NCBI GenBank assembly: GCA_963829055.1
Contig: CAWHHI010000016.1
Location: 544,001-608,000 of the forward strand
Source of the DNA: an uncultured Gemmatimonadaceae bacterium
GTDB lineage: Bacteria > Gemmatimonadota > Gemmatimonadetes > Gemmatimonadales > Gemmatimonadaceae
DNA length: 64,000 nucleotides
Direction of reading: 5' to 3'
Under the pieces are notes generated by a model that saw nothing but the letters and a program-made list of their open reading frames with translations, ran no database searches and was not told the DNA's origin. A program made the translations under genes and the position numbers. This document shows positions 621 through 61,356 of the stretch, in pieces (the stretch's first letter is position 1; the number at the start of each line of letters is the position of its first letter).

Positions 621-2283
621 CAATCCGAGCACGAAAACCACGCGCTACATCTTCGTCACCGGCGGCGTCGTCTCGTCGCTGGGCAAGGGGATTGCCGCCG
701 CATCGTTAGGCCGCCTGCTCGTGGAGCGCGGCCTGTCGGTGTCGATCATGAAGTTCGACCCGTACCTGAACGTCGATCCGGGTACCATGTCGCCGTTCCA
801 GCACGGCGAGGTGTTCGTCACCGACGACGGCGCCGAAACGGATCTCGATCTCGGGCACTACGAACGATTCATCGACCGGTCGTTGTCGCAGCTGAACAAC
901 GTGACGACGGGTCGCATCTACCTGAACGTCATCACGAAGGAACGCCGCGGCGAGTATCTCGGCTCCACCGTGCAGGTGATCCCGCACATCACGGACGAGA
1001 TCAAGTCGGCCATCCGGCGTATGTCGCCCGACAACGACGTCGTCATCGTCGAGATCGGCGGTACGGTCGGCGACATCGAGTCGCTGCCGTTCCTCGAGGC
1101 CATCAGGCAGTTCCGCCACGAGATCGGGCGGCAGAACGCGCTCTTCATCCACCTGACGCTCGTGCCGTACATCGCCGCCGCCGGCGAGGTGAAGACCAAG
1201 CCCACGCAGCACTCGGTGCGTGAGCTCATGGAAATCGGAATCCAGCCCGACATCCTCATCTGCCGCACCGAGCGTCCACTCAGCGAGGACGTGAAGCGGA
1301 AGATCGCGCTGTTCTGTAACGTCGAATTCGGCGCCGTCATCGAGAGTCGAGACGTCCCGACGATCTATCAGATTCCGATCACGTTTCACGAGCAGGGCCT
1401 CGACGAGCGCGTGATGCAGCGCCTCGAGCTCGAAGGCAACGCACCCGATCTTTCGCAATGGCGCGCGATGGTGAACCGCGTGATCGCTCCGCGCGATCGC
1501 GTGCGCATCGCAGTCGTGGGGAAGTACACGGAGCTCGTCGACAGCTACAAGAGCGTGCAGGAAGCGCTCATTCACGGTGGCATCGCGAACGATGTCGGCG
1601 TCGATATCTCGTGGCTCTCGAGCGACCTGTTCACGAGCAGCGATCGCGCCCGTGAGATTCTCAGCTCGTATCACGGGCTGCTCGTGCCCGGCGGCTTCGG
1701 CGTGCGCGGTGTCGAGGGAATGGTCGAAGCCATCCGCGCGGCGCGCGAGACGCGTCTTCCGTTCCTCGGCATCTGTCTCGGTATGCAGGTCGCGATCATC
1801 GAGTTCGCGCGCAACGTGCTCAATCTCGAGGACAGTCACTCGAGCGAGTTCGCGCCGGACTGCGGGAACGCGGTGGTGAGCTTGATGGAATCCCAACAAC
1901 ACGTCACCGACATGGGCGGCACGATGCGCCTTGGCGCGTATCCGTGTCGGCTGGGCCGCGGCTCCAAGGCGGCCGAGGTGTATGGCGTTCCGGAAGTGAG
2001 CGAACGGCATCGGCATCGGTACGAGGTGTCGAACGAGTACCGCGACGCATTCACGGAGCATGGACTCAAGCTCAGTGGCCTCAGTCCGAACGGCTCACTG
2101 GTCGAAATCGTGGAGTTGGCCGATCACCCGTGGTTCATCGGCTGCCAGTTCCACCCCGAGCTGCAGTCGCGTCCCACGCGGCCGCACCCGTTGTTCTCGG
2201 GGCTCGTCGCCGCAGCGATGGGGCAGAAGCGCCGCGCCGAGCCGGCGAAGGGCGACCGTGCGCTCGTCGAGGCGGCCGACTAG
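613..2283 (+). CDS. pyrG: CTP synthase
   Basis: [48 protein letters not shown]. Confidence 0.98.
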
Positions 2284-2284
2284 C

Positions 2285-3160
2285 ATGCCGTTCGTGTTTC
2301 CGCGCGACGCGCTCTTTCTCATCGCAGGTCCGTGCGTCCTCGAATCCGACGCGTTGAATCTGCGCGTCGGTGAGCATCTCGCGCGCCTCGCAGAGCGCGT
2401 GCCGGGCGGAATCGTGTACAAGGCGAGCTTCGATAAAGCGAACCGCTCGAATGCGGGTGCGGCGCGCGGCCCAGGAATCGAGGAGGGTCTGGCGGCGCTC
2501 GACCGCGTTAGGCGCGCGACGGGATTGCCGATCCTCACGGACGTGCACCTGCCGGAACAGTGCGCGCCCGCGGCGGAAGTCGTCGACGTGCTCCAGATCC
2601 CCGCGTTCCTCTGCCGGCAGACGGACCTCCTGCTCGCGGCGGGTGCGACCGGGAAGCCCGTGAACGTCAAGAAGGGCCAGTGGATGCATCCCGAGGGAAT
2701 GCGGGGCGCGGTAGAGAAGGTTCGCTTCGCGATGGGAACCGGGACCGGGGAACAGGGAAGCGAACAGCACGCGGCAAGCCGCCTCGATTCCCGATTCCCG
2801 ATTCCCGATTCCCGAGTTGCCGTCACTGAACGCGGCAGCTTCTTCGGCTACGGTGACCTCGTCGTCGACATGCGCGGCTTCACGCGCATGCGCGAGGCGT
2901 GCAACGCTCCCGTGATCTTCGACGGGACGCACAGTGTGCAGCGACCCGGGATGGGCGAAGGCGGCGCGAGCGGTGGCGCGCGCGAGTTCATTGCGGCACT
3001 CACGCGAGCGGCGGTGGCTGCCGGCGCGGACGGCTTGTTCCTCGAGACGCATCCCGACCCGGATAACGCGCCGAGTGACGGTCCGAACATGCTGCCGCTC
3101 TCGTCGCTCGACACCGTGGTGAATCGCGCCGTGGAGATCTGGCAGCTGTGTCGCCAATGA
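2285..3160 (+). CDS. kdsA: KDO8P synthase, with a ~25-30 aa repeat-derived insertion
   Basis: IAGPCVLES, KASFDKANRS, QIPAFLCRQTDLL, NVKKGQ, FDGTHSVQRP, SDGPNMLP; ATG at 2285 directly after the pyrG stop. Confidence 0.96.
   Translation: MPFVFPRDALFLIAGPCVLESDALNLRVGEHLARLAERVPGGIVYKASFDKANRSNAGAARGPGIEEGLAALDRVRRATGLPILTDVHLPEQCAPAAEVVDVLQIPAFLCRQTDLLLAAGATGKPVNVKKGQWMHPEGMRGAVEKVRFAMGTGTGEQGSEQHAASRLDSRFPIPDSRVAVTERGSFFGYGDLVVDMRGFTRMREACNAPVIFDGTHSVQRPGMGEGGASGGAREFIAALTRAAVAAGADGLFLETHPDPDNAPSDGPNMLPLSSLDTVVNRAVEIWQLCRQ
2733..2815. repeat. Heptamer-repeat inverted element (GGGAACM-like ... TTCCCGA x4) inside kdsA
   Basis: GGGAACC GGGACCG GGGAACA GGGAAGC, a spacer, then TTCCCGA x4; frame preserved. 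Confidence 0.8.
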
Positions 3161-59340: not shown

Positions 59341-59503
59341 TGCTCATGCTGGGGGGCGCGAAGTTATCGGTGACATGAAACGAATCAGAACGCAAACGAT
59401 CCTGTGCGTTGCGTCACAGGTCGCCGCTGGCCGAGTGTCCGGGGATCATCTGTAGACGCGGCGGTGCCACTCAACGTCATTTGAAGGGGCCGCATCACCG
59501 AAA

Positions 59504-60346
59504 TCATCGAATCGGGAATGACCCGAAGAGCTCGAACCGCTGCGATCCCGCTTCCTCGTGACGCCGCAGCCTGACCGTGATGAAAGCGTCCACCGTGCTC
59601 AGGGCGTGATTCGCGATCACGACCCCGAGGTCCTGGAGTGACGTCCGGTAGGCGTTGTTGCTCCTTCGAATGGTGCGCCGGAACTCCGCGTACTCCAGAC
59701 GAGCGTTGCTCCACGACCATCGGTAGTCAGCGGTGACCGCTCGGTCCCGGTAGAAGAGCTCCGCGTTCCTGGACTCTGCCTCGTCTCGCGGTGCGTCCGG
59801 GTTGGCCCAGTACGTCTGACGAGCGAGCAACCAGATTGCACCGTTGGCGGTCGTCGTGTCTGTCTCCGGATTCAGGTCACCGCCCGGTATGACGTCGAAG
59901 GCTCCGCTCGAGACGAACTTCTCCATCCGCTCGTAGTAGTCGAAGTCACCGATGGGACGCGTGGCGCTGAACGGTCGCCGGGCGACCTCGGACGCCAGGT
60001 TGCGGTAGCTGCCACGCGCTCGCTGTCCCTCCTTGGCGTCCGCTGCATAACGCGCCCACGCGTACGCCTCCACCGCGAGATACGCGACAACCCGGTCCTG
60101 ACCGAGAAGTGCCTGGCCGGTACCTGGCACGATCGCCGACGCGAGAACCGCCCACGCCGTCGTCTCGCGCGATGAATCCTGCCGCGCCCGCAGTCGATCC
60201 AGCAAATCGCCGTGTGGAACCGCGCTACCGCGCCAGGCGGCGGGTTGTTGCGCTGCGAACGAGCGGCCGACCGACGCGCGCTGTGCGAGGCCGCTCGACA
60301 GCGGCAGCGCTATCGCCAGGAGCACCACCACCCATCGCGGCTTCAA
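59504..60346 (-). CDS. Hypothetical exported/membrane protein
   Basis: Signal peptide; SAIVPGTGQ, YYE, WSW, VDAF motifs. Confidence 0.6.
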   Translation of the reverse strand: MKPRWVVVLLAIALPLSSGLAQRASVGRSFAAQQPAAWRGSAVPHGDLLDRLRARQDSSRETTAWAVLASAIVPGTGQALLGQDRVVAYLAVEAYAWARYAADAKEGQRARGSYRNLASEVARRPFSATRPIGDFDYYERMEKFVSSGAFDVIPGGDLNPETDTTTANGAIWLLARQTYWANPDAPRDEAESRNAELFYRDRAVTADYRWSWSNARLEYAEFRRTIRRSNNAYRTSLQDLGVVIANHALSTVDAFITVRLRRHEEAGSQRFELFGSFPIR

Positions 60347-61356
60347 AACAGGTAGCGAAGCGAGAGAAACGTCGGTGCCTTCCCCGCGTCAGCGGAAAGC
60401 CCGCTGAGTATGCGAGCCACGTCGAACACCAGGTTACCCGTGCTGAGGCCAATGCCTATGGACGGACCGCCTGCCTCCGACCGAGACGCTTCGAACGCGT
60501 AGCCGGCCCGCACGTGAAATCGATCGCGGTACGCAATGTCGGTCCCGAATCGCGGCGCTGGGTTCCCTACGTGGATTCCGTCGGAGAGGTCGAACGCGAG
60601 GCGCACGGCTGTTTCGGGCGCGAGTTTCGGAGGCAAGTCCAGGCGGTACTGTACTCCGACCTGCAGACGCATCGGCAACTCATCCGCCTGCGGGCTATCG
60701 TTGACCTGCAGCTTGATGCCGACGAAGTTGCGCGCCGCAATTCCGATGACCAATGGCACGGAGCGTTTGACCAGAAACTGCGCGCCGAGATCGAGCGCGC
60801 TCGTCGTCGATGAGAACGTGATGTCGTCGGGACACGGCCCGGTGCAGTCGATGCGAAACTGCACGAGTTTGTACGTGAGCCCGGCGGTGACGTAGCTGCC
60901 TAACGATGTCGCGTACGTCGCCGCATAGATGAAGCTTCGCGGAATGATCGTGCCGCTTACCGCCTCACCGCCAGCCGGAGGCTCAATGGGGGTGAATTCT
61001 TGCTCGCCGTAGTCGAAGATGTTCACGGACAACGCCAGGACACCGAGTAGAGACGATGGAACGACGATCGTCACGGCGTCTCCGGTACCGGCGACACTCT
61101 GCGAGTGGTGGATCGCCGCCTCTCGACGTGTCGAGGCGCCGAGACCAGCGGGGTTCCACCAAATGTTTTCGCTACCGGACCGGTCGGCCACGACGGCCTG
61201 GCCCATTCCCACGGATCGAGCGCCTACCGGCAATAGCAGGAAGAGCGCGCCTTCCTGAGCGAGCCCACTCTGCGCGCGTGAGACCGCCGCGACACTTGAG
61301 ATCAGCGCAAATGCGCCAGCGAGTGCGACGACCAGGCTAGAGCGGCGTCGCCTCAT
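60343..61356 (-). CDS. PorV/PorQ-family outer-membrane beta-barrel
   Basis: [30 protein letters not shown], terminal YLF. Confidence 0.75.

Follow-up and report, generated by a model that had tools for sequence, protein, structure and literature searches.

The window analysed in this work, i.e., the whole stretch of 64 kb from the forward strand of one contig (G000:C16:544001-608000), belongs to the assembly of an uncultured Gemmatimonadaceae bacterium (7.78 Mb, 20 contigs, 66.5% GC), and the subject of the analysis is an 8-mer, GCCTAACG, which is scattered through its genes. The word is a lineage-specific, hyper-abundant and orientation-independent signal in double-stranded DNA, and it is actively kept. 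Its most likely role, which we put forward tentatively, is that of a self tag of the DNA uptake sequence (DUS) or uptake signal sequence (USS) type, that is, a DNA-uptake-enhancing sequence; the uptake process itself and the existence of a protein which reads the word are what we infer. When both strands of the window were searched, exactly 30 matches were found, 18 on the plus and 12 on the minus strand, at the same 30 starts which the initial annotation had counted by hand. One hundred dinucleotide-preserving shuffles of the window gave a mean of 1.17 copies and a maximum of 5, and none of them (0/100) reached 30. The core of the word, CCTAAC, occurred 40 times against a shuffle mean of 6.98, and the 10 occurrences beyond the exact copies are the ten one-end variants listed earlier. 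The 5S and 23S rRNA genes (62491-64000) hold no copy, as had been claimed, and the last one in the window starts at 60898. The rest of the window is ordinary housekeeping DNA, comprising pyrG, a kdsA-like gene, rpoN, dapF, surE, gpsA, plsY, der, uvrC, murJ, lpxK/B/A/D, bamA, clp, prfB, and era.

The whole genome contains 5,004 copies of GCCTAACG (0.64/kb), of which 2,457 are forward and 2,547 reverse, at a density of 0.48-0.80/kb on all 20 contigs, compared with 373 copies of the reversed control word. Despite its three A/T letters the word ranks 31st among all 8-mers. Alignment of all copies showed that the motif is exactly eight letters long, with flanks carrying at most 0.13 bit at any position, which rules out that it is a part of a longer repeat. 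Some one-off variants were 2-4 times more frequent than the Markov expectation, namely ACCTAACG (827 copies), GCATAACG (583), GCCTAACA (435), and CCCTAACG (428), and the others stayed near 1. For the coding context we considered 5,041 high-confidence coding sequences (CDS), covering 65% of the genome, which were obtained from a purpose-made caller based on third-position GC content (GC3) and open reading frames (ORFs), not from a standard gene finder. This set comprises 2,893 copies, with 2,111 falling outside it, and all four stop-free frames are occupied: xCG-TTA-GGC 1,135 times, G-CCT-AAC-G 800 times, GC-CTA-ACG 537 times, and C-GTT-AGG-C 421 times. The preference for the gene sense is slight (1,556 versus 1,337 copies). 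Shuffling of synonymous codons within genes, which preserves the proteins, the codon usage of each gene and also the rare codons contributed by the word itself, left 135 copies (standard deviation about 10), i.e., the observed number is 21 times higher. The word alone takes up 1,135 of the 2,467 TTA codons (46%), 537 of the 3,374 CTA codons (16%), and 421 of the 6,553 AGG codons (6%) of the set. With a count so far above the codon-shuffled null and with these rare codons concentrated in the word, not equally common outside it, neither result goes against the initial annotation, which had proposed a DNA-level signal independent of frame and strand; the four frames, the two strands, and the uninformative flanks bear this out. 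That the word might simply follow from peptide or codon usage, or derive from a longer repeat or a mobile element, we regard as next to impossible: some copies do encode common peptides (A-L-G, P-N), but the 21-fold excess over the synonymous shuffle and the use of all four frames rule out a coding or peptide bias, the flanks and the presence on both strands speak against the other variants, and relatives with the same proteins are without the word. A full-text literature search for the word gave, among the matches listed, papers on unrelated subjects as judged by title and beginning of the abstract, and in the accessible parts of the literature on uptake sequences and on integrons of Gemmatimonadota no such word is described.

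The gain and the retention of sites were followed in codon-based alignments of 14 window genes with those of G014, G241, G305, G294, G007, G001, and G004. Firstly, the word positions differ between genera, at most 2 of the 41 listed site positions being shared. Where the word is missing, CGCTCGGC or something close to it usually stands in its place, which indicates that the word was created by synonymous changes, e.g., from the leucine codon CTC to TTA. Secondly, within the genus (76-78% DNA identity) 50 of 96 pairs of window word and genome were kept, versus 14-17% of all 8-mers, and 50 of the 59 words present in the aligned DNA of five relatives were shared with this genome; these pairs are not independent, as the genomes are kin. 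Taken together, the turnover between genera and the retention within the genus show that the sets of words were accumulated lineage by lineage and then held.

The word is not peculiar to this genome but characterises a clade, which the initial annotation had missed. In a set of 41 relatives, each of the 7 genomes belonging to the host genus (g1) carries 2,501-5,112 copies, and the densest genome, G014 (genus g9), carries 6,360 copies in 5.1 Mb. Eight relatives are moderate with 173-605 copies, and the remaining 25 have 3-65 copies, far below the reversed control. A survey across the phylum, with 401 genomes, showed that high or moderate density is confined to genera g1, g46, g49, g44, g45, g38, g51, g41, and g48 of family f1 and to g77 of family f2, to which the tally of 41 relatives adds G014 (g9), g5, g14, and g15 in f1 as well as g26 and g28 in f3. 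In both tallies four unpublished genomes (G013, G086, G204, and G125) count as one row each, and no claim depends on these. Genus g46 holds three genomes with 3,479-4,141 copies and one, G294, with 66. Among loci related to the pyrG locus, 79 of 80 had 0-1 copies of the word. In four moderately enriched genomes (G212, G166, G040, and G122), of which 94-100 kb each was sampled, the same 8-mer ranked first or nearly first among the words, and in 81 kb of the word-poor G294 no substitute word stands out, so there are no dialects. A quick single-gene tree of PyrG from 45 genomes shows the trait clustered, with one clade consisting of 11 carriers only (0.05-1.25/kb), and it requires at least three changes of the trait, forced by well-supported branches. 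The host phylum is one of soil and genetically barely studied; a density graded over a datable phylogeny, with on/off contrasts within one genus, allows a clean comparative search for the reader.

The spacing of the copies is more even than chance. Gaps of at most 150 bp made up 2.7%, where a random process would give 9.3%, and those of at most 300 bp 9.1% versus 17.8%. Adjacent pairs closer than 150 bp were counted 29 times in the orientation +-, 26 times in -+, 36 times in ++, and 43 times in --, all below the roughly 116 expected per class, and with all four classes depleted there are no terminator-like or attC-like pairs. Avoidance of close pairs is a trait of uptake sequences. Neither local clusters nor a centromere-like array was seen in the genome, where the maximum was 11 copies in 5 kb. 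An even spread on all replicons, free of clusters, with close pairs avoided and orientation indifferent, could also be expected of binding sites for a nucleoid or chromosome-organising protein, each selected on its own. We give this little credence, since about 5,000 weakly selected sites would be hard to maintain against codon usage without a drive, since close relatives live without the word (G294 with 66 copies versus 3,479-4,141 in its congeners), and since no candidate protein was found.

The initial annotation had likened the word to Chi, KOPS, matS, and uptake-like sequences. With the first three it shares the character of a short over-represented chromosomal word, but these three of the four analogies fell. 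At about 550 kb on C16, a point covered by the window, GC skew and gene strand change over together. Window positions 16790-16820, between dapF (+) and the first gene on the minus strand, are taken up by an AT-rich dif-like sequence; as a match it is weak, with 2 mismatches to the dif pattern and a count at chance level. Its position exactly at the switch of gene orientation and GC skew indicates that the window spans the replication terminus. On C16 the leading strand reads CGTTAGGC at 355 of 639 copies (55.6%; summed by hand from bins), a share not above what the slight preference for the gene sense would give, and in 137 bins of 50 kb the correlation of strand bias with GC skew had a rho of only -0.19. 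Relative to the dif-like site, 21 of the 30 window copies are oriented alike, and genome-wide the share is about 55%. Chi-type function normally shows replication polarity. Both Chi and KOPS were therefore rejected, and matS likewise, the word being non-palindromic, present on all contigs and, if anything, less dense near the terminus (19-24 copies per 50 kb versus 30-45 elsewhere). It thus differs from all three in lacking strand polarity and confinement to the terminus, and in a far stronger over-representation. It differs from Chi also in that RecC was found in just 1 of the 41 relatives, AddAB not having been searched for.

Mobile DNA carries the word as well. G305 is a complete genome of four replicons, and its densities, estimated from samples (280 kb in the case of the chromosome), were 0.54/kb for the chromosome, 0.67 and 0.79/kb for two 1-Mb replicons, and 0.85/kb for an integrase element of roughly 15 kb. 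The sequence of the latter (G305:C4, locus L368, 20,952 bases) shows an ORF pattern which repeats at an offset of 14,997 bases, pointing to a circle of roughly 15 kb assembled with overlap; it is probably an excised integrative element, encoding a tyrosine integrase and a DUF5906 protein. A phage contig with genes for major head protein, scaffold, portal, and terminase (L248, IMGVR_UViG_3300049057_000028) contains 31 words in 17 kb on both strands (1.83/kb), 22 of them in 26 listed ORFs, versus 1.4 after synonymous shuffling (largest value 6 in 300 shuffles). In a viral scan for convergent pairs, none of the 31 stretches was rich in the word, and a search for relatives of the L248 portal protein returned L248 alone. 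These data raise the question whether the word might mark the cell's own DNA for a nuclease, repair or defence machine, following the logic of Chi though not its anatomy; every replicon in these cells, phages included, would then be selected to carry it. The L248 contig, the presence of the word on all four G305 replicons with the small integrase element densest, and the conservation of sites within the genus are consistent with such a tag inside the cell. We nevertheless consider it fairly unlikely, because replication polarity is absent (55.6% leading strand), RecC is confined to 1 of 41 relatives, and a single word-rich phage contig was found, the 31 convergent-pair stretches having given none; moreover, we know of no system that reads an unmodified 8-mer at this density.

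Methylation was weighed because of a cyanobacterial precedent. HIP1 (GCGATCGC) is a conserved 8-mer with a 15- to 300-fold over-representation, two methylases recognise it, and recent work ties it to transformation and gene transfer, according to the available parts of the sources (PMC5861425, PMC4390886, PMC13756078). As far as those sources go, it resembles GCCTAACG in being a hyper-abundant 8-mer within genes, conserved in position, graded across genera and unsettled in function, having stayed unexplained for decades. HIP1, however, is palindromic and overlaps two methylase targets, whereas GCCTAACG is asymmetric and is not tracked by the three methylase families searched. The C5 methylases (PF00145) were found in none of the 8 word-rich genomes (4 of 41 overall), the N6_N4 methylases (PF01555) in 0 of 7 genomes of the host genus and in 16 of 41 overall, and the Eco57I-type domain (PF07669) in 41 of 41, so that it does not discriminate; none of the three showed a positive association with the word, and PF02384 and PF02086 were not searched for. 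The Eco57I-type protein, of about 1,000-1,100 amino acids in all 41 searched genomes of the order (e.g., G001:C159:37463-38320), is an observation in its own right; restriction-type enzymes are rarely so universal, which suggests that the protein has a conserved role in housekeeping. Some adenine methylases have asymmetric 6-bp targets which CCTAAC resembles, and this likeness together with HIP1 would favour an orphan methyltransferase recognising the word or its core, with coupled repair or selection keeping the frequency up. We think this improbable, given the distribution of the three families, and given that the changes which create the word (C to T, C to A) oppose very-short-patch repair.

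A different lead came from the word-poor relatives, where the copies are concentrated in same-strand runs with a spacing of about 400-1,400 bp. Three runs in G027 account for at least 40 of its 65 copies, and one of these runs ends at an IntI gene. The sites have the layout GCCTAAC-G, imperfect inverted repeat, T-GTTAGGC, i.e., that of a classic attC, and folding gives imperfect hairpins (z -4.5 to -4.9). The pairs GCCTAAC...GTTAGRC yielded 102 strand-wise reads, in which the base after GCCTAAC was G in 51, A in 48, T in 2, and C in 1, so that one end of nearly every site is GCCTAACG; the count of 51 is partly circular, as the arrays were located via the 8-mer itself. As the initial annotation had not noticed, the word thus equals the first eight bases of attC sites in related Gemmatimonadales, being their R'' end plus one base, and it fits the R box consensus RYYYAAC/GTTRRRY as printed in the available part of a published study (PMC5027507). 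The paired-hairpin arrangement is present in the relatives G027, G025, and G380. Large chromosomal integron cassette arrays are found in these Gemmatimonadales (L068-L073, on G027:C80, C95, C43, G025:C3, and G380:C2). Their attC family is well conserved, with lengths mostly of 90-141 nt, and G027:C95 has about 27 such sites within 24 kb. The same array habit was seen in many "viral" contigs of 30-65% GC from the scan for direct pairs, which, among the matches listed, gave mostly cassette arrays of many GC contents.

The words scattered through this genome are no attC sites themselves, and this candidate was rejected. They stand single, without hairpin pairing and not beside integrase genes, and it was substitution within housekeeping genes that gave rise to them. 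A profile built for nhmmer from those array attCs of the relatives which were at most 110 nt long among the 102 reads gave no match in this genome at E 1e-3, nor did it match beside IntI in G001, G005, G003, G040, and G019, although IntI of G001 and G005 is full-length; Rfam contains no matching attC model. IntI as a driver was likewise rejected, since its presence does not follow word density: the curated cut-off was exceeded in 4/8 word-rich, 4/8 moderate, and 16/25 word-poor relatives, and in G014 only broken pieces were found. The words could still be R-box-like sites for an integron integrase or a related tyrosine recombinase, with an "attG"-like or domesticated function. This would agree with the concentration of copies in the cassette arrays of word-poor relatives (at least 40/65 in G027), with array sites that fold as hairpins and match the R box as printed in that part of the paper (PMC5027507), and with one end of nearly every array site being the word. 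A reader of conserved specificity would also fit the absence of dialects in three families. We find it doubtful all the same, considering the IntI distribution with the broken pieces in G014, the empty profile search in this genome and beside IntI in G001 and G005, the partly circular count of 51, the lack of pairing (inverted pairs at 45-150 bp are not over-represented), and the origin of the words by substitution, not insertion; in addition, recombination sites in essential genes should be harmful. A related idea, to which we likewise assign a low probability, is that the identity with the integron core is no chance, and that a reader tuned to the universal cassette end (GCCTAAC + G) writes the word as a by-product of its bias. 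Such a reader could be an uptake receptor fishing integron cassettes from soil DNA, or a recombinase relative. If true, natural transformation or some other route of exchange would be connected with the integron cassette pool, and the presence of one word in separate families and on their plasmids and phages would be explained. The attC-end match in any case raises a testable link between genome-wide words and a gene-cassette pool of open origin.

Some stretches of this genome are nearly free of the word. Three contig ends, C6:5440-55037, C11:0-46789, and C6:591808-623330, together about 128 kb with a GC content of 66-73%, hold fragmented housekeeping genes and a second FtsK, which is 47% identical to the FtsK of C16 and whose start recurs at the word-free end of C2 (C2:33099-43593). 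These ends probably stem from another organism and were joined on during assembly or binning. As presumed foreign DNA they form a useful internal control, with the word acting as a chimera detector, and in practice the word is a strong marker for binning and for the detection of chimeric contigs in these metagenome assemblies. Word-free gaps of 10-24 kb mostly contain ordinary metabolic genes, and one contains a plasmid-type RPA initiator; no clear link of these gaps to mobile elements was seen.

Returning to the uptake reading, we consider it the foremost candidate, in spite of a confidence which stays below even. Synonymous substitutions have written the word into ordinary genes, where it is maintained. 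Under the uptake reading, a DNA-binding part of an uptake or exchange machinery would prefer fragments carrying the word; and preferential import with homologous recombination would drive it to about 1 copy per 1-2 kb in all recombining DNA. As the word is the attC R'' end plus one base, the specificity of the reader may relate to integron cassette DNA. In favour are the abundance, the motif length, the use of several frames, the spacing, the conservation within the genus, and the turnover between genera, as well as the foreign-looking contig ends of this genome, which are nearly without words, and the presence of parts of an uptake apparatus (a PilQ-like secretin adjoining pilin genes here, and ComEC in 5/5 relatives). 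A 171-amino-acid pilin-like ORF on C16 was dropped, as it looks frameshifted. The likeness to the DUS of Neisseriaceae and the USS of Pasteurellaceae is considerable in so far as the accessible literature describes them, since these too are short non-palindromic words, present about once per kb on both strands, inside genes and in several frames, overriding codon choice, spaced more evenly than chance, clade-specific, and conserved among close species. According to the same portions of the literature, hyper-abundant DNA-uptake-enhancing sequences are known from two bacterial families only, and a third hyper-abundant word of this kind would widen the phenomenon.

Several observations weigh against uptake and keep our confidence low, foremost the data on mobile DNA and phage, the missing dialects and the attC identity, which do not fit the textbook case. 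The resident mobile DNA of G305 is not depleted of the word but matches or exceeds the chromosome, so that plasmid-size replicons, an integrative element, and a phage are here as rich as the chromosome or richer, unlike with DUS/USS, and the density on L248 fits a signal useful inside the cell at least as well as uptake. One and the same 8-mer occurs in three families, in contrast to the dialects of DUS. Frequent inverted word pairs act as terminators in Neisseria, whereas no excess of close inverted pairs of terminator type was found here. The host also belongs to another phylum, with 62-73% GC. As for the apparatus, a PilQ-like secretin was found in 40 of 41 relatives, rich and poor alike (none over the curated cut-off), and ComEC (5/5), a ComEA-like protein (5/5, weak), and a minor-pilin-like protein (5/5) were likewise present in word-rich and word-poor genomes. 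For uptake words a dedicated receptor is presumably to be expected, as with ComP in Neisseriaceae; our searches found no specific receptor. Among the integrase, methylase, RecC, pilus, and ComEC genes searched, none tracks word density and no reader was found.

Within the window, most of the 30 exact copies lie inside recognisable genes. On the plus-strand side of the switch, pyrG (610-2283 +) contains the copy at 704..711 (-), so that its sense strand reads CGTTAGGC, the kdsA-like DAHP_synth_1 gene (2285-3160 +) the copy at 2506..2513 (-), and a GT2 glycosyltransferase ORF (9718-10551 +) that at 9867..9874 (-). A GT4 glycosyltransferase gene (10664-11767 +) has two, of which the one at 11032..11039 (-) is kept in 5/5 same-genus genomes and the one at 11247..11254 (+) is common to 0/5. 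Three copies, at 19202..19209, 19481..19488, and 19817..19824 (all +), stand in the TTA frame of a hypothetical ORF of 472 amino acids (18725-20143 -). They are followed by single copies in a GT2 gene (21751..21758 -, gene 21457-22137 -), gpsA (23336..23343 +, gene 22550-23380 -), and plsY (23914..23921 +, gene 23540-24220 -). Both P-loops of Der contain the word, as the initial annotation had noted: GRPNVGKS is read from 25529 downward with the copy at 25490..25497 (-), and the second P-loop, at der nucleotide 527, reads G-CCT-AAC-G with the copy at 24979..24986 (-). Further copies were located in a larC-like nickel-insertion gene (29178..29185 -, gene 28684-29898 -), a gene for a pyridoxal-phosphate-dependent enzyme (30821..30828 +, gene 29946-31085 -), and the C-terminal part of uvrC (31189..31196 -, part 31082-32008 -). 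The bshC-like gene (34775-36397 -) comprises three, at 34784..34791 (+) in its 3' end, adjoining the start of murJ, at 34946..34953 (+), and at 35449..35456 (-), and the copy at 36434..36441 (-), between the start of this gene and the stop of rlmH (SPOUT), is probably intergenic. Further along the window, lpxB (39994-41223 -) holds the copy at 40911..40918 (+) and lpxA (42129-42968 -) that at 42749..42756 (+), and the copy at 42085..42092 (+), between the lpxA stop and a GFO/IDH/MocA oxidoreductase ORF, is kept in 4/4 aligned same-genus genomes. The copy at 44862..44869 (+) belongs to the lpxD part of an ORF (44190-46715 -). The last ones are found in a class II aminoacyl-tRNA synthetase gene (55850..55857 +, gene 54716-55984 -), the peptide chain release factor gene prfB (56313..56320 +, gene 55981-56979 -), a zinc-ribbon protein ORF (58045..58052 + and 58156..58163 -, ORF 57817-58326 -), and an unassigned ORF (60898..60905 +, ORF 60343-61356 -).

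Stop codons are also covered by the word or its core. The claimed overlap with the stops of lptB and gdh was recovered in the form of core variants, at 8081..8086 (+) over the TAA of the lptB-like ABC ATPase ORF (6859-8085) and at 36959..36964 (-) over the TAA of the gdh ORF (36960-37523 -), and the exact copy at 46463..46470 (+) spans the TAG stop of the bamA ORF (46465-48582 -) in addition. The other CCTAAC variants are at 616..621 (+), 10586..10591 (+), 13793..13798 (-), 28901..28906 (+), 49074..49079 (-) and 50292..50297 (-), both in a clpC/clpB-like gene, 51588..51593 (+), and 52349..52354 (+).

Several conserved genes of the window are split by frameshifts, namely der (24221-25529), uvrC (31082-33077), and the class II aminoacyl-tRNA synthetase gene (54496-55984), and metH is likewise in pieces at 606-619 kb of G000 C4. 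This suggests indel errors of the assembly, or pseudogenes, and ORF-based counts are limited by it. A second over-represented element was noticed genome-wide in G000, with 685 copies of GTCATTCCGAG and a consensus of about TTGTCATTCCGAGCG; it ranks first among 8- to 10-mers in maximal-order Markov lists and is apparently a short repeat family resembling repetitive extragenic palindromic (REP) sequences. Another over-represented repeat, of TCTTGAGTCT-type words, was seen in G212 (L154-L158), with 14-22 copies in 94 kb.

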